Made by a program: the position numbers and the translations under genes. Below the pieces are notes generated by a model. It worked only from the letters and a program-made list of their open reading frames with translations. It was not told where the DNA came from and searched no databases. Positions 743 to 18,385 of a stretch of DNA of 26,624 nt are shown here, piece by piece; within the stretch, counting starts at the first letter, position 1; every line of letters starts with the position of its first letter. The DNA comes from Clostridia bacterium (lineage in GTDB: Bacteria; Bacillota; TC1; JBAXCZ01), in assembly GCA_037141195.1 (NCBI GenBank), contig JBAXCZ010000027.1:1-26624 (forward strand), read 5' to 3'.

Positions 743-759
743 TTTCCCCATTAGATGAT
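743..759 (-). promoter_or_regulatory. 17-bp inverted repeat CCATTA-N5-TAATGG in the 5' leader of the metal-transporter gene. It is a candidate operator for a metalloregulator (Fur, Zur or MntR type). A TGTATAAT extended -10 lies at 776-781.
   Basis: The palindrome ccattagatgataatgg sits between a near-perfect -10 (aTGTATAATg on the minus strand) and the SD and start of the transporter gene. It contains TGATAAT, which is one half-site of the Fur-family 7-1-7 consensus. Confidence 0.35.
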
Positions 760-801
760 AATGGTTCGCATTTGCATTATACATTGTGAAGAAGGGAAAA
801 A

Positions 802-858
802 GCAAGTGAGTGTGGAGCTTAGGGTGTAATTGTTACCCTAAGCTCCACACTCACTTGC
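802..858 (-). terminator. Perfect 24-bp-stem hairpin with a T-rich tail on the minus strand. Likely the intrinsic terminator of the flavodoxin-like gene.
   Basis: The stem GCAAGTGAGTGTGGAGCTTAGGGT (802-825) pairs with ACCCTAAGCTCCACACTCACTTGC (835-858) around the loop GTAATTGTT. The minus-strand downstream sequence is CTTTTTCCCTTC. Confidence 0.6.
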
Positions 859-861
859 ACC

Positions 862-888
862 TAATTCACGATTCATAATTCATAATTT
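862..888. repeat. 27-bp direct repeat copy R1, TAATTCACGATTCATAATTCATAATTT. It is built from a heptad-like ATTCAYR array. Its partner is at 2407-2433.
   Basis: 24 of 27 positions match 2407-2433 (TAATTCACAATTCACAGTTCATAATTT). The two copies flank the MarR/FMN-bind/flavodoxin cassette. Confidence 0.55.
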
Positions 889-898
889 TTAAAAAATC

Positions 899-925
899 CT
901 AACCAACTAACCAACTAACCAACTA
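899..925. repeat. Tandem 8-bp repeat (CTAACCAA) x3.4 overlapping the stop codon of the flavodoxin-like gene
   Basis: The sequence reads ctaaccaa ctaaccaa ctaaccaa cta. The TAG stop of the 915-1412 gene is rc(915-917), inside the third unit. Confidence 0.5.
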
Positions 926-1412
926 TTTGTCCATTAAACGCTTCCGCTAAAACCGTGATATTTTCTGGCAGAGGACAAATGCTTGCTTTGCCTTCTTTCG
1001 CTATCGCTTTTTCCATGACCTTGGCAACTGTTTTATGAAAAAAGTTCATCTTGGCAATCCTTAGTTCTGCACCAAGACAGGTTTTTACCAAGGCATGCTC
1101 TATTAAGGCTGCAGGAAAAGCGTTTTGCATATTCAATTGGAAATTTTCTGGCATTCCACAAGCAATGAATAGTCCGATTCTTTTTTGAAGCAATAGCTCT
1201 AGCTTAGCTTCACAGTAAGCTTTTAATTTTTTATCTACCTGCCCAACATAGATAGAACCGCCGATGATTAGGTTATCTGCCTCGGATATTAGCGGTATTT
1301 CCGAAGTAGCAATATTTACACAAAGAATCTCTCCCTGTAGCTGAGCTGCCAGTTCTTTCACACAATCCTCTGCATAACCATATTTACTAGCATAGATAAT
1401 TATTGTTTTCAT
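915..1412 (-). CDS. Flavodoxin-like domain protein (HemG/Flavodoxin_5-like), 165 aa
   Basis: ATG start with the SD GGGGAA. The N-terminal MKTIIIYASKYGYAE is typical of short-chain flavodoxin-like proteins. Confidence 0.7.
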   Translation of the reverse strand: MKTIIIYASKYGYAEDCVKELAAQLQGEILCVNIATSEIPLISEADNLIIGGSIYVGQVDKKLKAYCEAKLELLLQKRIGLFIACGMPENFQLNMQNAFPAALIEHALVKTCLGAELRIAKMNFFHKTVAKVMEKAIAKEGKASICPLPENITVLAEAFNGQIVG

Positions 1413-1443
1413 TAAAATTCCCCATTCCTAGATAATTTATATT

Positions 1444-1830
1444 TTACTTTTTGAGAGCTTGCTCGATTGCTTTCAAGTAGGCTTTGCTAGTAACAGTTGC
1501 TCCGCTTACTGCGTCAATAGTAAGATCCTGCTTTGCTAGCACCTTAGCAATTAATTTGCTGGTTATCTCTGGTTTTTCAATAAGCACACTCTCTAAAATA
1601 TTAATATCAGTGATCTTTCCAGCCTCAATGGTTACTACAACTCTATTTGACCAGCGTCCACCGCTGTAGCTACCTTCATAAATTCCGTCCGGTTGCTCAC
1701 TTATGCTAATGGGGTAAATTCCCAACTTTTCACCTGCCTCTAAACCGTTGGTAAGATAAATTCCAGCAAAAAAAATGATACTAATCAACACAATAATCAT
1801 ACCTAAAACAATTTTCCGAACTAGTTTCAC
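1444..1830 (-). CDS. Membrane-anchored FMN-binding domain protein (FMN_bind, PF04205) carrying a predicted flavinylation motif, 128 aa
   Basis: GTG start with the SD AAAGGAAG, which lies inside the end of the MarR gene. There is an N-terminal transmembrane helix followed by DAVSGATVTSKAYLKAIEQAL. This matches the D-x-x-[ST]-G-A-T motif that ApbE-type flavin transferases use for covalent FMN attachment. Confidence 0.8.
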   Translation of the reverse strand: MKLVRKIVLGMIIVLISIIFFAGIYLTNGLEAGEKLGIYPISISEQPDGIYEGSYSGGRWSNRVVVTIEAGKITDINILESVLIEKPEITSKLIAKVLAKQDLTIDAVSGATVTSKAYLKAIEQALKK

Positions 1831-2313
1831 TTAATTTACTTCCTTTCCTGATACATTTTCAGCTTCCATTATTTCTAGATTTAACAATAATTTGCTTAAT
1901 AAGCTCCTAGTTTTTGTTAGTTCTTCCTCCTTGGTATTTTGGAAAAGAGCTTGGGAAAACGCAAGTGCTGATCCTTGTGTTTGCTCCCAAAAAACTTGGC
2001 TTGCTTTTGTGAGTCTAAGTCTAGTTACTCTGGCATCCTTGCTATCTTTTTCTAATACCAAGAGCTTCTTTTCCGCTAGTTTTAAGGCAAGCTGTTTAAT
2101 ATTTTGATGTGAGCTACCCATTTCCTTAGCAACCTCTTTGATGGTAGGTGGCTTATTAAAACGGTTCTCAATGACAATTGAGAGCATCCACTGCTTGGCA
2201 GTAATATCATAATGACTTAACTCCCGTTCTAACAAGGTATCCATTCTATTAGCCACTACTAAAAGTGCACCAAAAATGAATTGCCAGTCATCCATGGTAT
2301 CCAATTTGTCCAA
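1831..2313 (-). CDS. MarR-family transcriptional regulator, 160 aa
   Basis: TTG start with a strong SD (GGAGGA, 7 nt spacing). The winged helix is DITAKQWMLSIV...PTIKEVAKEMGSSHQNIKQLALKLAEKKLLV...DARVTRLRLT. The stop is adjacent to the start of the next gene. Confidence 0.85.
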   Translation of the reverse strand: MDKLDTMDDWQFIFGALLVVANRMDTLLERELSHYDITAKQWMLSIVIENRFNKPPTIKEVAKEMGSSHQNIKQLALKLAEKKLLVLEKDSKDARVTRLRLTKASQVFWEQTQGSALAFSQALFQNTKEEELTKTRSLLSKLLLNLEIMEAENVSGKEVN

Positions 2314-2335
2314 AATTTATTCCTCCAATTCGCAA

Positions 2336-2379
2336 ATAAAGGTAATGTATTATCTTTATAGATAATACATTACCTTTAT
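2336..2379. promoter_or_regulatory. Perfect 20-4-20 palindrome immediately upstream of the MarR SD. It is a candidate MarR autoregulatory operator.
   Basis: ATAAAGGTAATGTATTATCT ttat AGATAATACATTACCTTTAT. It ends 23 nt from the MarR start codon. Confidence 0.55.
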
Positions 2380-2406
2380 TGTATAGTCAATGGTGTTTTT
2401 AAATTA

Positions 2407-2433
2407 TAATTCACAATTCACAGTTCATAATTT
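2407..2433. repeat. 27-bp direct repeat copy R2. Its partner is 862-888.
   Basis: TAATTCACAATTCACAGTTCATAATTT. It consists of three tandem heptads (AATTCAC / AATTCAC / AGTTCAT). Direct-repeat heptads are typical of response-regulator binding sites. Confidence 0.55.
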
Positions 2434-2472: not shown

Positions 2473-2493
2473 CGGGCGGGGTTTGCCCGCCCG
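2473..2493 (-). terminator. GC-rich hairpin (CGGGCGGG-gtttg-CCCGCCCG) with a T-rich minus-strand tail. Candidate terminator of the diguanylate cyclase gene. A second 20-bp palindrome sits at 2510-2529.
   Basis: An 8-bp GC stem with a 5-nt loop. The minus strand continues TTCTTTAATTGTT. A neighbouring perfect palindrome reads GGTCGATTCATGAATCGACC. Confidence 0.4.
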
Positions 2494-2667
2494 AAGAACT
2501 TAAGCTCTCGGTCGATTCATGAATCGACCCTACAATTTCTAACACACCATCTGTTTCCAATTTCTTCTTAGCGCGATGCACAAAGTGCAGAGCACTCAGC
2601 AGCGGCTATGCCGCGCTCAGCAGTGGAAATGTCACGCTCAGCTACTCTTTTCCTCAGCCAACTGTTT

Positions 2668-5271
2668 TCAATCCCTACTCCTCTTACTCTCTTCCTTCTT
2701 ATTCTGATACATAAAGTCTTCTGCTTGTTTAAAAATATCATTCATGCTTTCACTTTCACGATTTTTTGTGGCATAACCAAAGGCTATGGAAATATCACTT
2801 GCACATACTGATTCTTGAGCTGAGAGCTCTCTAATTCGCTGAATAATCTTCTCCGCTTCAGCTGCACTAGTATTTGGTAAGAGGATAACAAATTCATCAC
2901 CACCAAGTCTGGCGATAATTTCATCAGCACGACATCCTTCATTCAGGATTTTTGCAGCTTTTTGAAGAAGTTCATCACCAGCTCCATGACCAAAATTGTC
3001 ATTAATCAGCTTCAAGCCGTTAACATCCCCCATAATTAAGGTTAAAGGTAGATTACGCTCAGTATCTAGCCTAGCTAGTTCGGCTTCGTAAAACCTCCGA
3101 TTATAAAGCCCTGTTAGCTGGTCATGATAGCTAAGGTAGAGAATTTCTGCTTCTTTGCTTTTTTGAACCGAAACATCCCAGAAAATTAAAACTGCACCGT
3201 TAATGCTCCCGTTGCCTTGTAGAATTGGCATTGCACTCGCTTCAATCAAACACTCGTTTTTATTCTTATCAACTAAAATAATGTCAATTAATCTGTTAGC
3301 TTCTCCCAACGTAAGTGCTTTAGTAACAATACCTTCACACTTTTCTCTTGTTAACTCACTTAGAATATTAAAGACCTCTGCAATTGCTTGTCCTTTTGCT
3401 TCAAATTGTAAAAATCCTGTGAGTTGTTCTGCAATTCTATTGATAAAGGTTATCTTACCATATTCATCAGTAGTTATTACTCCTTCTCCTACTGTCAACA
3501 GGGTGGTTTCTAAAAGATTTTTCTCGTTTGCTAAAGCTATCTCTAAACTTTTGCGTTCGGTAATATCTTCAATCATGCATAAATAGCGAAATCTACTATC
3601 TTCTGAAAACTTCACCTTTTCTACAATCATCTTGACCCAAATCACTTGTCCAGCTTTGCTCAAATACCTTTTATCAAGTTGAAAGCCGTGTATCTCTCCT
3701 GAACTCAGCTGTTCCATGAGCTTAAGCTCTCTTGGTATATCATCAGGATGAGTATAATCTACCCAACTAATGGTTGCTAACTCTTCACTTGTTCTTCCTA
3801 CAATATTTATAAAGCTCTTATTATATCCATAGGTGATTCCAGTATCCATAATAGTAAGTGCAATCCCAAAAGGCGCTTGCTCAAAGATAGTTCTAAAGCG
3901 TTCTTCACTTTCCCGTAGTGCATCCTCATTATGTTTCTCTTCTGTTATATCCTCTAACATGCAAATATGTTGCGGATTTTCCTTTCCTATTGCTTCAAAT
4001 GTTGTAATCCGCCTATTTACCCAAACTATCGAACCATTTGGCTTTAGCATGCGTTTCTGCATGCTATATTCACCACTCTTATTGCCATTGTTAACAAGCA
4101 ATTCCACATTTTCTAAATCTTTCTGCACATCTGCTGGATGTGTTATGCTCATCCAATCTATTTGCTTTAATTCCTCTATGCTCCGTCCTAATATTTCTGC
4201 ATATTTTGGATTGATATCAAGATATGCTCCCGTTACCGAATCACTTAAAGTTATGCCAAAAGGGGCATTGGAAAAAATCGTCTTGAATTTAATTTCACTT
4301 TGCTCAAGCGCTAAGGCACTAGTTGCTATCTCACTTTGTTGTATTAGTAGTTTCTTATTTGCATCACTAAGGTCTGCTGTTCTTTGTTTTACCATTTTAT
4401 TAAGTTGCCTAATTATTAACAGCACAATCAAAATTATAATTATAGCTCCAAGTAAAACCGCGCCTGCTACCATAATAATAGCTTTATTCAATTGTGCTTG
4501 ATTGGTAAAATCTTCACCAAACCACTTATGATAAATAGTTTCATATACTCCATTATCTTTAATCCTAATTAAGCCTGCATTTAGGAGTTTATATACAGTT
4601 TGATTTTCTTTCAGGGTAACTATGGCATATTTTTCCTCATTGAGAGGACTTCCTACAATTTTAATTTTTTCTAGAGCACCTAAATGCTCCGCAAGGTATA
4701 TCCCAACCCATCTTTGCCCAGCAAATGCTACTGCCTTTTTATCTAGTAAAGCAGAAAAAGCTTCTTCTTGGTCTACAATTGGTAAAGAGATGGTTTCAGG
4801 ATATTTTTTTAAACTTTCTTCTGCAATATCTCCCTTTTGATAGCTGACAATGTGACCTTTTAAGTCATCTGGTCCGTTAATACCTTGTGTATCCTTTAAG
4901 ATAAAAATATTTTGCTGATTTACCACTGTTGCTTCTGTAAAAGCATATTTTTTTGCTCTTGCTTCACTAAATGTCATCCCTTGAAGAGCATCAACCTCTT
5001 GATTATCTAAGGCCTCTATAGCCTCACTCCAATGCATAGGCAGAAATTTTATCTCTATCTTCATTTCTTTAGCTATTGCTCGCATAATATCCACATTAAA
5101 CCCTTGATAAGTGCCATCTTCTGATACAAATTCAAAGGGGGGATAGTTTTCATTTCCTGCTAGTTTGATGATTGTAGGTTCTGTTAGAGCCTGAACTGGT
5201 AAGATATTTATGTTAAGGCATAGTGCTACTAAAAATAGTATTATGCAAAATTTACTTTTTTCAGCTTTCAT
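2668..5271 (-). CDS. Sensor diguanylate cyclase, 867 aa. Domain order: signal peptide, two periplasmic solute-binding (SBP_bac_3-like) domains, a transmembrane helix, PAS domains, and a GGDEF domain.
   Basis: ATG with the SD GAGGTG. There is a signal peptide, the periplasmic motif NYPPFEF, and a transmembrane segment AIIMVAGAVLLGAIIIILIVLLII. Three PAS-like segments follow. The GGDEF domain ends in RLGGDEFVILLP. Confidence 0.9.
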   Translation of the reverse strand: MKAEKSKFCIILFLVALCLNINILPVQALTEPTIIKLAGNENYPPFEFVSEDGTYQGFNVDIMRAIAKEMKIEIKFLPMHWSEAIEALDNQEVDALQGMTFSEARAKKYAFTEATVVNQQNIFILKDTQGINGPDDLKGHIVSYQKGDIAEESLKKYPETISLPIVDQEEAFSALLDKKAVAFAGQRWVGIYLAEHLGALEKIKIVGSPLNEEKYAIVTLKENQTVYKLLNAGLIRIKDNGVYETIYHKWFGEDFTNQAQLNKAIIMVAGAVLLGAIIIILIVLLIIRQLNKMVKQRTADLSDANKKLLIQQSEIATSALALEQSEIKFKTIFSNAPFGITLSDSVTGAYLDINPKYAEILGRSIEELKQIDWMSITHPADVQKDLENVELLVNNGNKSGEYSMQKRMLKPNGSIVWVNRRITTFEAIGKENPQHICMLEDITEEKHNEDALRESEERFRTIFEQAPFGIALTIMDTGITYGYNKSFINIVGRTSEELATISWVDYTHPDDIPRELKLMEQLSSGEIHGFQLDKRYLSKAGQVIWVKMIVEKVKFSEDSRFRYLCMIEDITERKSLEIALANEKNLLETTLLTVGEGVITTDEYGKITFINRIAEQLTGFLQFEAKGQAIAEVFNILSELTREKCEGIVTKALTLGEANRLIDIILVDKNKNECLIEASAMPILQGNGSINGAVLIFWDVSVQKSKEAEILYLSYHDQLTGLYNRRFYEAELARLDTERNLPLTLIMGDVNGLKLINDNFGHGAGDELLQKAAKILNEGCRADEIIARLGGDEFVILLPNTSAAEAEKIIQRIRELSAQESVCASDISIAFGYATKNRESESMNDIFKQAEDFMYQNKKEESKRSRD

Positions 5272-5586: not shown

Positions 5587-8500
5587 CTAAATTAAATTAG
5601 CTTTTATTAATAATCTTTGGATTAATACTGTTGCCTCTGCTCTAGTAATGGTTGCTTTTGGTGCTAGTCGAGAAGTGCTCCTACCATAGATGATACCTTG
5701 CTGTATGGCTTTTGCTATATCTTGCCTTGCCCATGCGCTTATCTGCTGAGAATCTTGGAACTTTGCTAAGAGTTCTGCTGCTTCGCTAGTTTGAATCTGA
5801 ACTCTCAAACCAGATAGTTGCATAGCTTTTGCTAATAAGCTGATAGCTTCCTCTCTAGTGATTTTTTTCTGAGGTGCAAATTCATTTTCACCATATCCAC
5901 TAATTAAATTATATGCTGTTGCTGTAGCGATTGCTCCACTATACCAAGCACTTTCTTGTACATCTGCGAAGCTGTTAGTCCCTTGGCTTGTCTTTATTCC
6001 CAAGCCTCTCATCAAGATGGCAGTAAATTCCGCCCTAGTAATTGCTCTGTTAGGCGCAAATTCCTCTTTGCGAATACCTTTAACTACCATCCGTGAACCC
6101 ATGTCATTGATAGCATGCTTTGCCCAATGCTGTGATACATCCTTAAACTCGATTGGATGCCCAACTAATGCATAGATGCTATTGGTTAGACTGTTGATTA
6201 TTGCAAAATTCCCCCAACCTTGGATGACTATTTTTGTAGGTATGTGTCTTACTGTTCCATCCTGCTCTACTAGGATACTTGTAGTAATCTTGGCTGGATC
6301 TATACCTGCGGATAGAGCTATTGTGCGTTCTACATGGCTAGAAAATTCATTGATCAATATTGTTTTATCACCATAGCTACAGCTCACAGAAAATCCTACA
6401 GCAGGCACAAATATTTTAAATGTCCCAAGTCTTGCTGCATTTTCCAAAACTTGCGCTTGCTCTAATGTTGCTTTACTGATTTCAATGGATACTTTAATAT
6501 CTTTTAAGTCAAGGTTTTTTCCTAACTCTGCTGAGATAGCAGATATCTTAATTTGGGATGCTGGCAGTATATAGCTTGCCTCAGGGGTTTGCATTTCTAC
6601 TATTGCCTGTTTGTCTTCAAGGTTTTTAATCAGTTGCCCATTCAACTGGCTTACAACTCGAGTAGAACTTGTGTTAAAGGGAATTTTAACTACTGCTCCC
6701 TCTCCTGCAATTCTTAGTCTTGTTGTTATTTTCTCTTCATCAAGGATGATAGTGGTAGTGCTTTGTCCACCAATATTATCCTCAACCGTTACACCTCCAC
6801 TAAATTCTAATCCATTAACAAGAATGTCAGTATTGGTATAGGTATAATTATAAGTAGCTATTTTTCCTGCTGCTATCTCTAATTCTACCGCGTCACCTGC
6901 ATTATAATTTATTTTAGCTTGATATCTCACAAGGTATGTTCCTGCTGCTAATCCGTTAATTTCTGCTGCCTTTGCTACTTTGTATAGACTTTCAGTTGCA
7001 AGCTTGTATTCCATCTCTGCGGTTGTCCCTGTAATCTTGCCGTCACTTAAACCATAGGAGGTTGTTTTTATACTTTCTAAGCCTATCGGAGCAATCTGCT
7101 CTGCATTATGCACGGTAATACTTACTTCAGCTACTATTGTTGCCATATTATTGTAGCTAATTGTAATGGCTTCAGTATGAGTTCCAGCTGTTAAATTTAC
7201 TTGTGGCTGAATTGTCCAGGTGTTGATACTATCACCGTAGGCTACTTCCATTCCACTACCCCTAAGAATGAAGCTGTCGCCGCTTACCGTTATATTAGTA
7301 ATATTTGCATTAGTATTGCCACTGTTGGTAATTAAGATAGCTTGTAAGCTCGCTTGCTGAGCACCGTAAGTGATAGCTGCAAAACTCGGGGCAGTTATAC
7401 TGAGCGTATAAGTATTGGCAAGCCCAGACGCAATTGTTATTTCAGCATCTTCACCTGCTTTATAACCTGCTTTAGCTTGAAATCTTACCTGATATGTTCC
7501 TGCTGCTAAGTTGTTTAGTACGCTGCCACTTATTGCAGCATAGGTAGCATTACTCAATAATTTATATTCCATTGCACTAGATACACCAATAATTTTGCCA
7601 TCATTTCTACTAGCAACCGTTTCATCTATCTTACTTAAGCTAGGCGCTGTCTGCTCTAGTGCTATTACTTTTTCCGTCGCAGAGCTTGTAACTATCCCAC
7701 TATAGCTAGCTGTTCCCGATGCGATAACCGTGATTGGTTTACCTACGTCTGCGATTTGCACTGTATAGCTCGCCGAGTTTGTTCCTATATTCTCAGTTCC
7801 TGCTTGCCACTTGTAGCTTACTGTAGCTGCCGCTGGGGTCAGTGTGCCTGCAGTAAGTTTTCCTCCCACAATAGCAACTCCTGAAATTGCTCCAATTTCC
7901 GTAAGAGCAATTGTCCATGCATCTCCACTACGGGAGTATGTATTGGCTTTAGCTGCTCCATAGATTGTTATGAAGTTTGGTGTCGCCGTAGCACTGACAA
8001 AAGCACCTGTTCCAATTGTAGTTGCATTATTCTCCATGGTTACGCGAGCTAAACTGGTACAACCTAAAAAGGCACGCCTGATAATCGTGGAAATATTTAT
8101 TGGTATGGTAATATCTGTTAAACTTGTGCAATTTAAAAATATTCTATCTTCTAATGTTGTTAGACTAGTGCTTAAGACCACACTAACTAAGCTATTACAT
8201 CCATCGAAAGCTTGGATACCAATACTAGTGATACTGTTTGGCAGAGTAATACTAGTAATACTTGTACAAAATTGAAAAGCTCCAGCATCAATAATTTTTA
8301 CTGGAACTCCAGCTAAGGTTGCCGGTATGACTACGTCAGTTGCATTGCCATAGTATTTAATAATCATCGCACTACTTAAATTGCTAGAATAGTAATATGG
8401 AAAAGGATCTATTGTTATGTATGCGATTGCACCTGCATTATAGCCCTCTTTTGCCTGATACCTAACTTGGTAGCTTCCTGCTGCTAAACCACTAATAGTT

Positions 8501-10225: not shown

Positions 10226-12916
10226 TTATTTTTCCTCCTTCGCAAATAATATTTTTACACAGGTACCTATACCTAGCTCGCTACTAATTGCAAGATAGTT
10301 CCCATATAATCTCTGAAGTCGATTATTTATATTAACAATGCCTACCCCTTTTTCTATCCTATCCTCTGAAAAAATTGTTGCCAGCTTTTCCACATTCATG
10401 CCAATACCATCATCTCTAATCTCTATTTCCAAGTTTCCATCGCTCTGCACGATACTCAAATAAACGGTTCCACCATCCAATTTTTTTGAAATTCCATGAC
10501 GAACTGCATTTTCGACTAAGGGTTGAAGCATCAATACTGGAAGTTGATAGCTTAAAGGTATCTCAATTTTTTTTACTAGTTTAATTTTATTACCAAAGCG
10601 TGCCTCTTCAATATGAAAATATGTATCTACAAATTCTAATTCTTTTTCTAAGCTAACCATTTTATCTAGATTGTTGAACTCTAGACTACCTCTTAAATAT
10701 ACTGCTAAATCAAGAATTAATTTGCTTGCTTTGCTACCATCCTTTTCACAAATATTGGCAATAGCATTTAGGGCATTATAAAGGAAATGTGGCTTAATTT
10801 GAGCTTGCAGAAAAGCTGTTTCAGTTTCCATAATTTTATCCTTCAGTTTAGCTGACTCTTTTAATAGTTGTTCTTCGATAATTCGTTTTTTTACATTAAC
10901 CAGCATCTGGGCAAAGATTACCAATAATTCCTTCTCCCGCTCGGTATATGCATGCATGCTTTTCACAGCATCAAAACCTACAAAACCTATTAAAATACCC
11001 TCACTAAGCATTGGAACTGTTATCAAGCTCTTGATTCCTTGGGGTTCAAGTACTTCTCTTAAGCCTCCCATCTCATCTTTGGGTAACAAGCTAACATCAT
11101 CCACATAAAAAGCCTCTCCTAATACATGCTTTTCTACCCATTGAGAAACGACTTTTAATGAAATATTTTGCAGGTTCATCTTTTCAGCATTGATGCCATC
11201 TCTACACCATTCATAGGTGTTAGAGGTAGTATCTTTTATAAAATCATATTCGAAAATATATGATCTATCAGCCCCCACAAATTCTGCTATCTCTTGCAGT
11301 GACTTTTCCATGGTATTTCCAAATTCCGACAAATCTATATTGATGTAGACAGATGATATTTTTAGGATTAAATCTTGCATCTTGGAATAATATTCAATTT
11401 GTTCTTCTTGCTTTTTCTTAGCTGTGATATCTCTCATAATTCCATCAACTCTAATGGGGTGTTGATTAATGTCGAAAATTAGCTTCAGCCTTTCATCAAT
11501 CCAAATTATTTCCCCATCAGCTCTAATAATTCTAAATTCTAATTGAGAATCACCCAATTTTTCCAACGCTTCTAAATTTTTTTCCACGCTCTTTCTATCC
11601 TCAGGATAAATTAATTCAATCCACTTAAAGGTTTTTTCATTTATAACTTTATCTTCCAGACCATATAAAGCTTGCACCGATGGACTAATATATAATCTTT
11701 CCAAACTTGGCCATACAGCAGACCACACTACATCGCGCATATTACTCATGATGCTACTAAACTTCTCCTCTGTCTTAAACAATTCTCCTTCGATTTTTCG
11801 GATATCTGTTATGTCATTCATCACTGTCAAATAAGACTGTTCTAGCTGATTGTCAATCATTTCTCCAGAAAAAAGACCATCTAAGATTCCTCCATCTTTT
11901 TTCCTAGCTTGCAGTTCAAAGTTTGTTAATTTACCTACTTGTTGAAGAACCTTCTGAGCCTCTGCCTGCTTTGAATTTTCAATGAATAGACCAAGCTCTA
12001 TACTTGTTTTTCCAATGACCTCTTCCTTTGTATAACCTAGCTTTTTTAAAAATGTTGAGTTAACATCTGTAAACTTATCGTTTTGCATATTTGTTAATGC
12101 CATTAATGCTGGGTTATTATCAAATATTTTTTGAAATTTATCAAAAGCTGCCTGTTGCAAGGTTAAATCTTTGGAAATGCCAAAAATGCAGTCCATCCCA
12201 TCCCATTTACCAAACCATACTCTCGTTTCCACTGATAAAAAGCTTTTATCTTTTCTACCAAGTGGCAAGGGACAAGTGCTTCGCTTGCCTGCAAACATAT
12301 CTCCAAAAATCTGTTCTGCCTCAGCTCTTTTTTCTGCTGGATGCACATCGAGAATATGCATGCCGATTAGCTCTTCCATCTTATATCCCAGCTTAGTAAT
12401 TGCCGCTGTATTGGCATAGATAATTCTGCCTTCTGGATTACCAACTAGGAAGATATCATCTACAGTTTCAAAAAATGTGCGAAAGTTAGCTTCACTCTCT
12501 TTTAACTTATTTTCGACATTTCTATGCTCGCTAATATCTTCGAAAAGATAGAAACGCCCAAAGTAATCATCGTCATCTCCGCGCATTTGAGTAGAAAATC
12601 TGCGTATTGTTCTTCCATCTAAAAAAGGGATATAATCTTCAATCGTAATACGATTTTCTTCACTTTGTAATGGCTTACAAGATTCAGCAAAGGCTGGCAC
12701 ATCTGCTAAAACAGCCAGACAGTCTGGTAAAATCTGATTATTTGTCAGTTCTCCCCTTTGCATTTTTGCTTCTAAGTGTGTTATTCCCCAGATTTCACAA
12801 AACTTATGATTAAAATGCAAAATCTCATCGGTGCGATTGTCCACCACTAAAAGGGCAAGTGTAGAGATGCTCGACATCAATTTTAAAAATAATTCATTTT
12901 CTATTTTTTTACTCAT
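10226..12916 (-). CDS. Cytoplasmic sensor histidine kinase: a PAS x4-GAF sensor fused to a LytS/YehU-type transmitter (His_kinase PF06580 plus HATPase_c), about 897 aa
   Basis: There are no transmembrane segments. The GAF segment contains IAEFVGADRSYIFEYDF. The transmitter has LQAQIKPHFLYNALNAIANIC, the PF06580 signature. The ATPase has ENAVRHG...DDGIGM. The ORF-track start at 12988 is a TTG extension. I place the start at ATG 12916 (MSKKIENELFLK), which aligns with the paralog's N-terminus and has a GGAG upstream. Confidence 0.85.
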   Translation of the reverse strand: MSKKIENELFLKLMSSISTLALLVVDNRTDEILHFNHKFCEIWGITHLEAKMQRGELTNNQILPDCLAVLADVPAFAESCKPLQSEENRITIEDYIPFLDGRTIRRFSTQMRGDDDDYFGRFYLFEDISEHRNVENKLKESEANFRTFFETVDDIFLVGNPEGRIIYANTAAITKLGYKMEELIGMHILDVHPAEKRAEAEQIFGDMFAGKRSTCPLPLGRKDKSFLSVETRVWFGKWDGMDCIFGISKDLTLQQAAFDKFQKIFDNNPALMALTNMQNDKFTDVNSTFLKKLGYTKEEVIGKTSIELGLFIENSKQAEAQKVLQQVGKLTNFELQARKKDGGILDGLFSGEMIDNQLEQSYLTVMNDITDIRKIEGELFKTEEKFSSIMSNMRDVVWSAVWPSLERLYISPSVQALYGLEDKVINEKTFKWIELIYPEDRKSVEKNLEALEKLGDSQLEFRIIRADGEIIWIDERLKLIFDINQHPIRVDGIMRDITAKKKQEEQIEYYSKMQDLILKISSVYINIDLSEFGNTMEKSLQEIAEFVGADRSYIFEYDFIKDTTSNTYEWCRDGINAEKMNLQNISLKVVSQWVEKHVLGEAFYVDDVSLLPKDEMGGLREVLEPQGIKSLITVPMLSEGILIGFVGFDAVKSMHAYTEREKELLVIFAQMLVNVKKRIIEEQLLKESAKLKDKIMETETAFLQAQIKPHFLYNALNAIANICEKDGSKASKLILDLAVYLRGSLEFNNLDKMVSLEKELEFVDTYFHIEEARFGNKIKLVKKIEIPLSYQLPVLMLQPLVENAVRHGISKKLDGGTVYLSIVQSDGNLEIEIRDDGIGMNVEKLATIFSEDRIEKGVGIVNINNRLQRLYGNYLAISSELGIGTCVKILFAKEEK
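10886..12902. repeat. About 2.0 kb segmental duplication, copy A. It encodes the sensor module of the LytS-type kinase. Copy B is at 16330-18344.
   Basis: Direct DNA alignment holds across the span at an offset near 5442 bp with small indels. The segment 10891-10935 reads tttttttacattaaccagcatctgggcaaagattaccaataattcc. The segment 16331-16378 reads ttttttcacattaaccagcatctgcgcaaagattactaataattcc. The proteins are about 85% identical from IENELFLK to LVNVKKRI. Confidence 0.75.
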
Positions 12917-13256
12917 TTTCTTCTTTTCTCCTTCTATTTTCAAGCGCTTTAACCTCCGAAGCTTAGCTAAATGTGAATCTCTCCGCAAGTTGATGTACTG
13001 TTAGAACAATCCTCATAAATCACTATACTTGCTTTTGATAATATGTTCTCAGCTTATAGGCTTCTTAAAATAAAATAACCCGTAGCTGGAAAATACAGTG
13101 TTATTCATATATTAGGATGCTGCAATATTTGTCTCTGAACTATTATTACTGTCAGGTGATTTTGGTAAACAAGCTATCCAGAAATTCAACTTTATAAATC
13201 ATATTCTATGCTAAATAACTCACTGTCACAATATTTTTTTAGTTCTATTATAAACA

Positions 13257-14449: not shown

Positions 14450-17400
14450 TTAATCTAATTCTTTTAAGATTTGTAAAGCGGCTTCAAATCTATAGTCGTC
14501 TAAACAGGCTTTTATATCTAAAAATTTTTCATTGGAATTTAAGCATTCAGTTTGCCTCAGAATTCCCTCTAAACAATTCACTGAGGCCATATCATTTTCC
14601 TGTAATAAAAGTGCAAGTTCTTTTTTAAGTGAGCTAATACTCGAGAAATCAGCTATTCCTATAGGATTTCCTTTAGCAACTAACTTTCTATCGTTCAAGT
14701 TACCAAGTGCATTAAATGCCTCTAATAGCGCTTCATCTAAATCGTCTGTTAAAACATTTAACTCAGCTAACTGCTTATTTTTCAGAGCATTTTCTAGTGC
14801 TATAGCACTTTTAACTACCTTCTCCGCCGCAATGTGTCCCGCTACACCCTTTACTGTATGTACAAGCCTCTCAGCTATTTCTAACTTGCCACAGCTTAAA
14901 GCTTTCTTGATATCTACTATAGTGCTATATTGATTTTTATGAAATTTTCTTAAGATTTTTTTTAAAAGCTCTTCATTATATTCTAAACTCGAAAGTGCTT
15001 TGAGATAATCAATCCCCGCAGGCTCTAATACTTTAACTATCTCGCGCGTTAATTCATCTAACACTATTTTTTCTTCTATGGGGTGATATTCTACAAATTC
15101 TTCAGCTACTGCCAATACATTCGGAATCGAACTGTGCTTGTGCCACAATGCCATTTTATTAAAAAGTACCACTGTAGTAATTGGCTTACTGATAAAATCG
15201 TTGATTCCTGCCTCAAGACATTTTTCTTTCTCATCTAAAAATGAGCTGGCTGATACTGCAATGATTGGTAAATCTTCAAAGCTCCTGAATTTTCTTATTT
15301 CCTTTGTGGCTTGATATCCATCCATATCAGGCATTCTAATATCCATTAATACCATATCATAATTTTTCTTCTTAATATAGGCAACTGCTGCTGCACCACT
15401 ATGTGTCATAGTCACTTTAATTTTTGCTAAATGCAGTATTTCAAAAAGTACATCCTGATTAAGCTCGTTATCCTCAACTACTAAAACATGCATACCCTCT
15501 AATTGCTCTATTATTTCTCGTCTTGGAGCTTTGAAAATGAACTGATTATTTGGTTCAAGAATTCCGTAATTTTTATTGATATGATTAAAACAAGCCGTAA
15601 AGAAAAAAGTGCTTCCACTGCCTATTTCACTCTGGAACCATATTTCACCTCCGAATAGCTCAACATATTTTTTAGTTATGGCAAGGCCTAAACCTGTTCC
15701 ACTATAGCTTCTACTATTTTCAGTGTCTACTTGATAGAATGGTTCAAATATATGTTTCCCTACTTCCTCCTCAATCCCAATTCCTGTATCTCTAATAGAA
15801 AAGTGCAGTCTAAGATAATCTTTACAATTTTCTGCCACTTTTACCCTAACTACAACTTCACCTTTATTGGTATACTTTACCGCATTACTTAACAAATTTG
15901 CTAAAATTTGTTGTAACCGTATGCTATCTCCAATAAGATTTGATGGCACATTTTCCTCAATATTTATGAGTATTTTTAGCCCCTTTAGCTCAATAATTTG
16001 CTGCAAGAGATTCGCAGCAGCATCTAAGCTTGCTCTTAGGTTAAATCGTTCTGTACGCAAGATTACATTTTTAGATTCAATTTTATCTAAATCCAGAATA
16101 TCATTGATTATTGCTAACAAAAGCTTCGATGAACTTTTGATTTTATCTAAATAATCATGTTGCTTCTCTGTTAAGGTAAAGTTATTGAGCAATTCTACAT
16201 AGGCAATTAATCCATTAATTGGCGTACGAATTTCATGGCTCATATTGGACAAAAATTGAGTTTTGATATTATTTGCTCTGATTGCCTCCTCATTAGCCAA
16301 GTGTAAACTTTGCTCGGTGTTAATCCGTTTTTTCACATTAACCAGCATCTGCGCAAAGATTACTAATAATTCCTTCTCCTTATCAGTGTAAAAATGTTTG
16401 CTTTTCACAGCATCAAAACCTACAAACCCTATTAAAATACCGTCGCTAAGCATTGGAACTGTTATCAAGCTCTTGATACCTTGAGGTTCAAGTACCTCTC
16501 TTAAGCCTCCAATACCATCTTGGGGTAGCAAACTAACATCGTCTACATAAAAAGCTTCTCCTAGTGCATGCTTTTCTACCCATTGAGGAATAGCAACTAA
16601 CGGAATATTTTGTAAATTCATAATTTCAGCATTGATGCTTTCACTACACCATTCATGTGTGTTAGAGGTAGTGTTTTTTACAAAGTCATAGTCGAAAATA
16701 TATGATCTGTCTGCCCCTACAAATTCTGCTAGCTCTTGCAGTGATTCTTCTAAGATATTTTCGAATTCTGACAAATCTATATTGATGTAGACAGATGATA
16801 TTTTTAAGATTAAGTCTTGCATCGTTGAATAATATTCAATTTGCTCATCTTGCTTTTTCTTAGCCGTAATATCCCGAATAATTCCATCAACCCTAATCGG
16901 CTGTTTATTCCGATCATAAATCAGCTTCATTCGTTCATCGACCCAAATTATTTCCCCATTGGCTCTAATAATTCTAAATTCATGTTGAGAATTCCCCAAT
17001 TCTTCTAGAGTTGCTAACTTGTTTGACAAACTCTGTTTATCCTCTGGATGAATAAATTCATTCCAGTTGAAGGTATTTTTATTAACTACACACTCATCTA
17101 CTCCGAACAAGTCTTTTGCTGATGGACTAACATAAAAATTTTCCAAGCTAGGCCAAGCAGAAGACCAGACAAAATCCAGCATATTATTCATAATACTGCT
17201 AAAATTCTCCTCTGTTTTGACCAAGTCTCTTTCGATTTTTCTAATTTCAGTTATGTCATTCATTACTGTTAAATAAGATTGCTCTAGCTGATTGTCGATT
17301 ATCTCACCAGAAAAAAGACCATCTATAATTCCTCCGTCTTTTTTCTTCGCTTGTAATTCAAAATTTATTAATTTTCCTTCTTGTAGTAGTACATTAAGCG

Positions 17401-18385
17401 CTTCACCCTGTTTTTCATTTTCAATAAATAGACCAATTTCTGTGCTAGTTTTACCAATGACCTCTTCTTTTGTATATCCCAGATTATTTAAAAAAGTTGA
17501 GTTAACATCTGTAAATTTCTTATCCAGCAAATTTGTTACTGCCATCAATGCTGGATTATTATCAAAGATTTTTTGAAATTTATCAAATGCTGCCTGTTGC
17601 AAGGTCAAATCTTTGGAAATGCCAAAAATGCAGTCCATCCCGTCCCATTTGCCAAACCACACTCTAGTCTCTACAGGTAAATAGCTTTTATCTTTTCTGC
17701 CAAGGGGCAAGGGGCAAGAGCTTCTCTTACCTGCAAACATATCACCAAAAATTACCTCTGCTTCCGCTCTTTTTTCTGCTGGATGTACGTCGAGAATATG
17801 CATACCGATTAGTTCTTCTAAAGTATAACCCAGCTTAGCAAGTGCTGCAGCATTCGCATAAATAATTTTACCTTCTGGGCTGCCAACTAGGAAGATATCA
17901 TCCACGGTTTCAAAGAATGTGCGAAAGTTGGCTTCGCTTTCTCTTAATTTTGCTTCTACATTTTTTTGCTGGCTGATATCTTCGAAAAGGTAGAAACGCC
18001 CAAAGTAAGCATCGTTCTCTCCACGTATTTGGGTAGAGAATCTGCGAATTGTCCTTCCATCTAAAAAAGGAATATAATCTTCAATTGTAATACGATTTTC
18101 TTCACTTTGTAATGGCTTACAAGATTCAGCAAAAGCTGGTACATCTGCTAAAACAGCCAGACAGTCTGGTATAATCTGATTATTTGTAAGTTCTCCCCTT
18201 TGCATTTGTGCTTCTAAGTGTGTTATTCCCCAGATTTCGCAAAACTTATGATTAAAATGCAAAATCTCATCGGTGCGATTATCTACAACAAAAAAAGCAA
18301 ACGGCGAGGTTTTAGTCATCATTTTTAAAAATAATTCATTTTCAATACCCTTATTAACTATTTTTCCTTCTTTATCAATATTCAT
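14450..18385 (-). CDS. Cytoplasmic hybrid sensor histidine kinase with a PAS x4-GAF sensor, HisKA, HATPase_c, a receiver and an HPt domain, 1311 aa
   Basis: ATG with the SD GGAGG. The H-box is MSHEIRTPINGL. The ATPase has DTGIGI...GTGLGLAI. The receiver has VLVVEDNELNQ...LMDIRMPDMDGY...ISKPI. The HPt motif is LVHTVKGVAGHIAAEK. The N-terminal ~690 aa are paralogous to 10226-12916. Confidence 0.9.
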   Translation of the reverse strand: MNIDKEGKIVNKGIENELFLKMMTKTSPFAFFVVDNRTDEILHFNHKFCEIWGITHLEAQMQRGELTNNQIIPDCLAVLADVPAFAESCKPLQSEENRITIEDYIPFLDGRTIRRFSTQIRGENDAYFGRFYLFEDISQQKNVEAKLRESEANFRTFFETVDDIFLVGSPEGKIIYANAAALAKLGYTLEELIGMHILDVHPAEKRAEAEVIFGDMFAGKRSSCPLPLGRKDKSYLPVETRVWFGKWDGMDCIFGISKDLTLQQAAFDKFQKIFDNNPALMAVTNLLDKKFTDVNSTFLNNLGYTKEEVIGKTSTEIGLFIENEKQGEALNVLLQEGKLINFELQAKKKDGGIIDGLFSGEIIDNQLEQSYLTVMNDITEIRKIERDLVKTEENFSSIMNNMLDFVWSSAWPSLENFYVSPSAKDLFGVDECVVNKNTFNWNEFIHPEDKQSLSNKLATLEELGNSQHEFRIIRANGEIIWVDERMKLIYDRNKQPIRVDGIIRDITAKKKQDEQIEYYSTMQDLILKISSVYINIDLSEFENILEESLQELAEFVGADRSYIFDYDFVKNTTSNTHEWCSESINAEIMNLQNIPLVAIPQWVEKHALGEAFYVDDVSLLPQDGIGGLREVLEPQGIKSLITVPMLSDGILIGFVGFDAVKSKHFYTDKEKELLVIFAQMLVNVKKRINTEQSLHLANEEAIRANNIKTQFLSNMSHEIRTPINGLIAYVELLNNFTLTEKQHDYLDKIKSSSKLLLAIINDILDLDKIESKNVILRTERFNLRASLDAAANLLQQIIELKGLKILINIEENVPSNLIGDSIRLQQILANLLSNAVKYTNKGEVVVRVKVAENCKDYLRLHFSIRDTGIGIEEEVGKHIFEPFYQVDTENSRSYSGTGLGLAITKKYVELFGGEIWFQSEIGSGSTFFFTACFNHINKNYGILEPNNQFIFKAPRREIIEQLEGMHVLVVEDNELNQDVLFEILHLAKIKVTMTHSGAAAVAYIKKKNYDMVLMDIRMPDMDGYQATKEIRKFRSFEDLPIIAVSASSFLDEKEKCLEAGINDFISKPITTVVLFNKMALWHKHSSIPNVLAVAEEFVEYHPIEEKIVLDELTREIVKVLEPAGIDYLKALSSLEYNEELLKKILRKFHKNQYSTIVDIKKALSCGKLEIAERLVHTVKGVAGHIAAEKVVKSAIALENALKNKQLAELNVLTDDLDEALLEAFNALGNLNDRKLVAKGNPIGIADFSSISSLKKELALLLQENDMASVNCLEGILRQTECLNSNEKFLDIKACLDDYRFEAALQILKELD
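16330..18344. repeat. About 2.0 kb segmental duplication, copy B. It encodes the sensor module of the hybrid kinase.
   Basis: See copy A (10886-12902). The duplication ends exactly at the linker before the kinase core (LVNVKKRI), after which the two genes diverge completely. Confidence 0.75.

Follow-up and report, generated by a model that had tools for sequence, protein, structure and literature searches.

The window analyzed here, which is the whole 26,624-nt contig JBAXCZ010000027.1 from the metagenome-assembled genome of a Clostridia bacterium (assembly GCA_037141195.1), carries a cassette of three genes encoding a MarR-family regulator, an FMN-binding protein, and a flavodoxin, and a 27-bp direct repeat lies on either side of it. 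A first-pass annotation of the same DNA had offered two explanations for these repeats, namely footprints left by the insertion of the cassette or operators of one regulator acting at two promoters. We favor, with moderate confidence, a reading in which each copy is an array in its own right, made of a heptamer repeat specific to this lineage; the arrays would have no regulator-specific role, and a causal part in the presence or absence of the cassette is unproven.

Two heptad arrays at the borders of a three-gene cassette

Every gene in the first 9 kb of the window is on the minus strand. The features between the diguanylate cyclase gene and znuA are listed below in the direction of transcription.

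5271-2668, minus strand: diguanylate cyclase gene (SBP_bac_3, PAS, and GGDEF), from the gene call and its domains
2595-2642, minus strand: 21-nt tandem repeat of 2.3 units in the cyclase-MarR spacer, from Tandem Repeats Finder
2510-2536, minus strand: second hairpin, GGTCGATTC AT GAATCGACC, followed by CTACAA; colinear with a hairpin and CCCCTACAA in the closest relative
2473-2493, minus strand: GC-rich hairpin GGGCGGG-GTTT-GCCCGCCC, the diguanylate cyclase terminator
2400-2433, minus strand: heptad array copy 2 (2407-2433 in the first-pass annotation), here including the degenerate unit TAATTTA
2390-2362, minus strand: MarR promoter TTGACT-17-TATTAT, from consensus boxes, within a feature at 2335-2390
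2335-2355 and 2360-2380, minus strand: perfect 21-bp inverted repeat made of two GGTAATRTATTAYC boxes, overlapping the MarR promoter
915-2313, minus strand: three-gene cassette, without a counterpart at the syntenic site of the closest relative
2313-1831, minus strand: MarR gene (MarR_2 and homologues)
1830-1444, minus strand: gene of a membrane-anchored FMN_bind protein (Pfam)
1412-915, minus strand: Flavodoxin_5 gene (Pfam)
899-925, minus strand: 8-mer tandem array (TAGTTGGT) of 3.4 units, covering the flavodoxin stop codon
862-888, minus strand: heptad array copy 1, within the 3' region of the operon that ends with flavodoxin; the terminator hairpin follows after 3 nt
802-858, minus strand: perfect hairpin with a 24-bp stem and a 9-nt loop, followed by TTTTT on the gene strand, a predicted terminator
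754-781, minus strand: znuA promoter region, with a TATAAT -10 box at 781-776 directly followed by GCAAATGCGAACCATTATCATC
start at 728, minus strand: znuA (Pfam ZnuA)

The direct repeats at 862-888 and 2407-2433 are a real pair, both in direct orientation. Read directly, copy 1 is TAATTCACGATTCATAATTCATAATTT and copy 2 is TAATTCACAATTCACAGTTCATAATTT, and comparing them confirms the reported match at 24 of 27 positions. With copy 1 as the query and up to three mismatches allowed, only these two sites were found in the 26.6-kb window, a count reached by none of 100 dinucleotide shuffles. Tandem Repeats Finder describes both copies as period-7 arrays, of 3.7 and 3.6 units, with 78-83% matches. 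The unit is TGAATTR on the gene (minus) strand and YAATTCA as its reverse complement. On the gene strand, copy 1 reads AAATTA TGAATTA TGAATCG TGAATTA, and copy 2 reads AAATTA TGAACTG TGAATTG TGAATTA. The earlier description of each copy as three ATTCAYR heptads captures the tandem period of 7, but the third unit of copy 2 is GTTCATA and does not fit ATTCAYR. Copy 2 runs on in phase as the degenerate units TAATTTA (2400-2406) and TGAACTA (2442-2448), and the likeness of the two copies ends at the borders of the arrays.

Both copies are intergenic, lying between called genes, and each contains TGA in all three frames of the gene strand. Copy 2 ends 93 nt upstream of the MarR start (2313), whereas copy 1 starts 26 nt beyond the flavodoxin stop (915) and leaves 133 nt between its end and the downstream ZnuA start (728), in good agreement with the distances of about 95 and 135 bp and the placement just past the flavodoxin gene given by the first-pass annotation. 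With transcription starts placed from consensus boxes, here the -10 boxes, copy 2 lies at about -78 to -52 at the MarR promoter, 40 nt downstream of the diguanylate cyclase terminator, and copy 1 lies at about -119 to -93 at znuA. Ten nucleotides separate copy 1 from the 8-mer array at the end of the flavodoxin gene. Both arrays are unchanged in five assemblies of the same species (L001-L005), which are uninformative on the origin of the arrays.

The heptad unit in the lineage and in other genomes

A scan of 185,579 species genomes with the heptad-core pattern ATGAAYYRTGAAYYRTGAAT, 20 nt long and degenerate, returned at least 120 loci, and nearly all the matches listed were (TGAATTA/G)n arrays. 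Taxa among the matches listed, to which the counts below also refer, include Bacteroidales, Prevotella, Microcystis, Scytonema, Lentisphaeria, Treponema, Ruminococcus, Chloroflexota, Saprospiraceae, and others; the variable triplet is TTA in 347 of 438 cases and TTG in 60. For comparison with the window, we used 121 loci chosen for the heptad core, namely 120 of these matches and one locus of the closest relative (L132). Copy 1 was matched at 24 or more of 27 positions by 83 of the 121 loci and copy 2 by 46, the best match being 26/27 (Prevotella and others), with the scan pattern fixing part of each 27-mer match. The shared unit alone therefore suffices for the 24/27 identity between copy 1 and copy 2, and no local duplication is indicated.

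Of 135 such arrays in other genomes, 127 lie outside open reading frames (ORFs); this location is built in, since a run of at least three units has stops in most frames or in all of them. Neither a strand bias nor a bias in the orientation of neighboring genes was present across the 135 arrays, and hairpins were not enriched beside them (p = 0.58). When the genes beside the arrays at the 120 listed loci were compared for a common function, PF05635 was the only recurrent neighbor. Period 7 was the commonest period in the listed loci (419 of 1124 Tandem Repeats Finder rows), with many other units represented. In viral contigs, (TGAATTA)3 was found in 76 stretches, compared with 29, 56, 73, and 80 for four permuted heptamers of equal composition, all of them far above chance. 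As the permuted heptamers are about as frequent, the TGAATTA unit is not special in viral contigs.

Several of the individual occurrences are worth recording. At three loci in Bacteroidales metagenome-assembled genomes (MAGs), small PF05635 genes, which encode the 23S rRNA intervening-sequence or four-helix-bundle protein, are bracketed by (AATTCAY)n arrays (L061 5318-5834, L081 377-926, and L126 about 4380-4990), inverted in two cases and direct in one. The 12.7-kb viral contig L159 (IMGVR_UViG_3300035392_000147) has (TGAATTA)n in almost every gap between about twenty small ORFs, in both orientations and abutting the ORF ends, like punctuation between cassettes, and L180 is a further case. 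The Lentisphaeria MAGs L021, L042, and L043 contain a multi-copy element, CCCTAACG(AATTATG)nAGATGCGCCT, at a spacing of about 90-100 bp and common to two MAGs. Finally, a 1.47-Mb viral contig, IMGVR_UViG_2974536336_000001 (L300-L368), holds dozens of (GATTATA)n arrays and accounts for about half of all matches to this control heptamer.

Within the lineage itself, the DNA examined came to about 62 kb, of which about 45 kb belong to the source genome and 17 kb to the closest relative found (loci L132-L136; ZnuA 75% identical, P0123). In the relative, the orthologous cyclase gene (869 aa, same domains) is directly followed by znuA, and the 349-bp spacer between them has no MarR, FMN_bind, and flavodoxin cassette. 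The window genome and this relative thus differ genuinely in having or lacking the cassette. The relative's spacer holds a single heptad array, AATTCACAATTCATAATTCACAAT (L132 9735-9758), which is identical in three assemblies and lies on the opposite strand relative to the flanking genes. Beside it, the 19-mer GGGCGGGGTTTGCCCGCCC matches the hairpin beside copy 2 exactly, the loop being oriented the same way, and is followed by a second hairpin and CCTACAA. Together these pieces form a module of about 150 bp, comprising the array, the GC hairpin, the second hairpin, and CCTACAA, at 2407-2536 in the window and 9735-9890 in L132. The module is colinear on the two plus strands, but the flanking cyclase and znuA genes are on opposite strands, which implies orthology with the copy 2 side and an inversion of the module in one of the two lineages. 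The sequence that separates the conserved pieces has only random-level identity.

Heptads recur elsewhere in this lineage in the company of an 8-mer repeat. A second, longer array of the relative, (AATTCAC) with 5.6 units (L132 16488-16526), lies in an unrelated spacer 6.7 kb from the first. It is preceded by a (TAGTTGGN) array (16381-16407) over the stop codon of a 161-aa gene and followed by a GC hairpin of the same family as the one in the relative's first spacer. The relative's cyclase stop codon lies inside a (TAGTTGGA) array of four units (L132 9644-9675), and an inverted array of the same 8-mer stands just before the ribosome-binding site of znuA (L132 9929-9974). Folded as RNA, these two inverted arrays pair across the whole spacer (L132; minimum free energy -122.6, z -6.7). 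One 8-mer array differs between L132 and L133 by a 21-nt indel. Likewise, 10 kb past the end of the window in the source genome, a spacer (L450 6042-6215) opens 16 nt after a stop codon with (TAGTTGGN) in 4.4 units (6042-6076), continues with a degenerate AAAATGAATATGAATTA, a remnant at about 6085-6107, and closes with an inverted 8-mer array (6184-6215). Copy 1, standing after the flavodoxin 8-mer array, has the same arrangement as this spacer. A further 10 kb along the 131-kb source contig contained no additional heptad array. Overall, the (TAGTTGGN)n arrays, to whose family the window array at 899-925 also belongs, lie on or just after stop codons and place TAG in every frame. At four sites in the two genomes they overlap the stop codon itself, and an inverted copy often stands just before the next gene. 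Heptads, 8-mer TAGTTGGN arrays, and GC-rich hairpins form a mosaic that recurs at the operon boundaries of this lineage.

On the reading that we favor, each copy is a stretch of about 3.7 units of (TGAATTR)n, and the likeness of the two would come from the common unit rather than from copying at the arrival of the cassette. The arrays would be part of a repeat set that is specific to the lineage, lies between genes, and marks the boundaries of operons in the window genome and its closest relative. They would arise and change length by slipped-strand mispairing, as has been suggested for heptamer repeats of bacteria, and they would persist only between genes, because a 7-base unit containing TGA places a stop in every frame. 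At the MarR and znuA promoters they would have no regulator-specific role, these promoters presumably being run by the MarR palindrome and a Zur-type box.

A number of observations weigh against this reading. No variation in unit number was seen among the five assemblies L001-L005, a small sample of short arrays, which is unlike a hypermutable repeat. All four heptad arrays of the lineage share one unit, implying that their seeding was not random. The array and the GC hairpin are conserved in two species whose spacer is otherwise randomized, and this is more than a freely drifting microsatellite would show. Moreover, the only two heptad arrays in the source-genome DNA, which was itself limited to about 45 kb, lie 1.5 kb apart and flank the exact block that is missing from the relative. 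At the observed density, a second array would fall within 1.6 kb by chance in roughly 7% of cases, a figure that is no valid test since the pair was selected for being a pair.

Recombination, transcript, and operator alternatives

The strongest competitor is that recombination between heptad arrays inserted or deleted the cassette, while the inverted 8-mer arrays flipped the spacer; we judge this unlikely, although it comes ahead of the other alternatives. One possible route is a circle carrying one array that recombined with a resident array, which would leave the block between two direct hybrid arrays. The first-pass annotation had proposed comparing relatives in search of an empty site with a single repeat copy, and the comparison bears this out in part: the syntenic site of the relative lacks the cassette and has one array, as predicted for an insertion, but that array is inverted together with about 150 bp, and the far flank is unalignable, there being no detectable counterpart of the copy 1 right flank in the relative's DNA. 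The direct orientation of the two window arrays and the orthology between the copy 2 left flank (GC hairpin, second hairpin, and CTACAA) and the flank of the relative's array favor recombination as well, whereas the opposite orientation of the relative's array demands an extra inversion and the unmatched copy 1 flank also counts against it. Further points in favor of recombination are that the module has opposite orientations in the two species, that inverted 8-mer arrays enclose it in the relative, and that a 21-nt indel distinguishes one such 8-mer array between strains.

In line with recombination, the MarR cassette occurs in unrelated neighborhoods in other genomes; against it, the cassette's GC content equals that of its surroundings in the composition profile, and no recombinase gene is nearby. 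Many other gene-block differences between the two genomes in the same region are without border arrays, and a length of 21-27 bp is a short substrate for homologous recombination. The bracketing of PF05635 genes by the same heptad arrays in Bacteroidales and the viral contig with arrays in almost every gap between small genes are what recombination would lead one to expect; the identity of the two copies, which is no higher than their identity to arrays of other genomes, is not.

For the narrower claim that the copies are footprints of an insertion, the absence of the cassette from a relative with one array stands, but the footprint inference is not established. First, the relative's array and the neighboring hairpins are inverted relative to the flanking genes. 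Second, heptads are also present in an unrelated spacer of the relative, as an array, and in a third spacer of the window genome, as a degenerate remnant. Third, the copies are no more alike than either is to arrays of other phyla, at 24/27 compared with 24-26/27 for unrelated instances. Fourth, the cassette is without an integrase or transposase, none being present in the Pfam lists for the cassette or its neighbors. The more distant znuA relatives L137 and L138 have other upstream neighbors, and insertion and deletion are therefore not told apart.

A broader version of the same idea, to which we likewise assign a low probability, is that heptads (TGAATTR) and 8-mers (TAGTTGGN), possibly with hairpins, serve as portable joints at which recombination moves or flips blocks the size of an operon. 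If so, the cassette would have been gained or lost by exchange between two heptad arrays, the module would have been flipped via the 8-mers, and the PF05635 brackets and the punctuation of the viral contig would reflect the same process. This would be a cassette system guided by repeats and working without a recombinase, for which PeSL shuffling in T4-type phages offers a comparison. In those phages, PeSLs were reportedly described by Arbiol and colleagues in 2010 as short repeats, each a promoter plus stem-loop unit, that lie on either side of small gene blocks and through which such blocks could be gained and lost by recombination, and the formation of circles is said to have been demonstrated. 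The PeSL model underlies the recombination alternative, whereas the window offers no evidence of circles or of promoter-stem-loop units.

We give still less weight to a role at the transcript level, in which the arrays would be boundary elements that act through the three-frame TGA or as the site of an RNA-binding protein affecting termination, 3'-end stability, or translation. Consistent with such a role, both arrays have TGA in all frames of the gene strand, copy 1 lies in a 3' untranslated region between the three-frame TAG 8-mer array and a strong terminator hairpin, and 8-mer arrays cover stop codons at four sites in two genomes. Translational and RNA-binding roles have also been proposed for the TAACTGA repeats of Beggiatoaceae (PMC4679880). 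However, the position of copy 2, past the cyclase terminator and before the only good MarR promoter, may leave it untranscribed. The low weight that we assign comes mainly from the strand, which is not conserved: with respect to the genes, the arrays of the relative occupy the opposite strand, and the 135 arrays of other genomes listed have no strand bias. Adjacent hairpins are not enriched, and no Rfam family matches; the Rfam scan gave nothing at gathering score, the only sub-threshold matches being of the perfect hairpin to miRNA precursors.

The promoters themselves bear on the proposal that both arrays are operators. MarR homologues with 59-67% identity are common in Clostridia, and in each of the MarR promoters of L006, L008, L010, and L451 a TTGACA -35 box is combined with two GGTAATRTATTAYC boxes that cover the -10 region; none of the four has heptads upstream of MarR. 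The two boxes, about 20 bp apart, recur over the -10 region of MarR-family promoters across distant Clostridia (window 2335-2380; L006 3944-3985; L008 3934-3979; L010 about 3945-3985; L451 about 1572-1612), as a perfect 21-bp palindrome in the window and as direct repeats in the other four. Judging from its position and conservation, the GGTAATRTATTAYC palindrome is probably the MarR autoregulatory operator. The genes downstream of such promoters are FMN_bind plus flavodoxin, flavodoxin alone, or DUF6544. Similarly, the orthologous znuA promoters of L137 and L138 have in common a AAATGCAAATGC box right after the -10 box, where the window has ATGCAAATGCGAAC, and neither has heptads. The AAATGCAAATGC(A/G)AAC box (window 754-781; L137 about 2960-3010; L138 about 5935-5985) occurs in znuA promoters whose operons end with a FUR-family gene, and the relative L132 has neither the box nor a FUR gene. 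By the same reasoning, this box is probably a Zur-type operator of the operon-encoded FUR-family protein.

Heptads are therefore found in 0 of 4 orthologous MarR promoters and 0 of 2 orthologous znuA promoters, and the arrays are not conserved parts of either promoter. With a conserved operator of its own at each promoter and no heptads, the suggestion of a shared operator for a direct-repeat-binding regulator, such as a response regulator controlling both the MarR operon and znuA, fails, and we consider it very improbable. The position of copy 2 at about -78 to -52 is one used by class I activators, its three direct repeats span two helical turns, and the window includes two response-regulator genes at a distance of about 6.5-8 kb; against this, the copies stand at unlike distances from their promoters (about -78/-52 and -119/-93), a 57-nt terminator hairpin separates copy 1 from the znuA promoter, in the relative the array occupies the other strand, with about 240 nt between it and the znuA start, there are no further sites in the roughly 45 kb of source genome, and the same sequence occurs in many phyla without such a common regulator and with no preference for positions upstream of genes. 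OmpR/PhoB-type operators are tandem direct repeats upstream of the -35 box, as is copy 2, but their period is about 10-11 bp and orthologous promoters retain them, whereas the period here is 7 and the arrays are not conserved. To our knowledge, judging by eye, none of the ARG, Fur, Zur, and PlcR boxes, cre, the ResD, PhoP, and LytTR sites, or the HutP triplets fits both copies.

Neighboring genes, known repeat families, and significance

The cassette genes are as first annotated, with ZnuA, Flavodoxin_5, and FMN_bind all above the Pfam curated cut-off. MarR_2 scores 24.5 bits, just below the 27-bit cut-off, and the protein has hundreds of MarR-annotated homologues. In locus L001, from a 131-kb contig of MAG GCA_964510155.1 with the same sequence, znuA is followed by genes for an ABC ATPase, a permease, and a FUR-family protein. 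The hairpin at 802-858 is likely the terminator of the MarR-FMN_bind-flavodoxin operon, and this hairpin, with its 24-bp stem, is unique in the DNA examined. In L005 (5366-5386), at 5x coverage, there are four mismatches, all in the 3' arm of this hairpin, and they are probably an assembly error in the palindrome. The FMN_bind protein (1444-1830) has an N-terminal membrane helix and a C-terminal end, DAVSGATVTS, which we take to resemble the ApbE flavinylation motif. The sequence suggests an extracytoplasmic flavoprotein that would have the flavodoxin as its partner and be under MarR control.

Farther along the window, two paralogous sensor-kinase genes (10226-12988 and 14450-18385) have long stretches of DNA similarity, with 10868-11167 and 16310-16609 being 85% identical at an offset of 5442. 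The pair looks like a tandem duplication of a signaling module. The relative L132 lacks the block of about 13 kb, located between VanW and the cyclase gene, that contains them.

Among known systems, the REP and BIME elements of enterobacteria resemble the window in that short repeats and hairpins stand at operon 3' ends in either orientation and are linked to terminators and rearrangements. REPs, however, are imperfect palindromes rather than tandem repeats and are mobilized by RAYT transposases, and no RAYT transposase gene was seen at the locus. The closer likeness is to simple repeats. As related in later work, in many bacterial genomes heptamers outnumber every other class of long simple repeat, which has been ascribed to polymerase slippage (Mrazek 2007, via PMC4679880 and PMC4692102). 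As far as those accounts describe them, these repeats agree with the present arrays in their head-to-tail 7-nt units, intergenic location, scattered lineages, and proposed origin by slippage; they are termed long, whereas the arrays here are short, with about 3.7 units, and do not vary in copy number in five assemblies.

TAACTGA direct repeats of marine Beggiatoaceae, Cyanobacteria, and Bacteroidetes provide a second precedent (MacGregor 2015, PMC4679880). They form short intergenic sets of two to six copies in which related heptamers are rare and other heptamers are intermixed, and a link to gene rearrangement has been suggested while their function is unproven (PMC4679880). TGAATTR shares with them the use of one heptamer per lineage, the short intergenic sets, a unit with a stop codon, an occurrence in the same unrelated phyla, and the mixing with other heptamers. 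The two units differ, however, sharing 5 of 7 positions in one register, and TGAATTR arrays are not just upstream of start codons. A TGAATTA array, in either orientation, was not mentioned in the literature that we searched, including PMC4679880. Likewise, the GGGAATC and GGGGAYT heptamers of Xanthomonas and Nostoc and the STRR of Calothrix keep their positions while their length varies (Rehm et al. 2015, PMC4692102). These are also lineage-specific families of intergenic heptamers with conserved positions, variable length and sequence, and some inverted pairs; they are G-rich and can form quadruplexes (PMC4692102), whereas TGAATTR is AT-rich. The arrays of the window fit the known class of intergenic heptamer repeats, as a new family.

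The earlier expectation of a mobile cassette with terminal repeats, or of a new regulon, is thus reduced to two instances of a heptamer repeat family. The case carries a warning that matches of 24-27 bp between AT-rich tandem arrays are not to be equated with footprints or operators unless the frequency of the unit has been checked. What is of some value at this locus is that a redox-related three-gene operon with heptamer arrays at its borders is cleanly present in one genome and absent from the other, that a module of repeat and hairpins is conserved between species and yet inverted, and that 8-mer arrays are placed on stop codons. Together they provide a testable case for whether bacterial simple repeats promote the rearrangement of gene blocks or are mere by-products of slippage.

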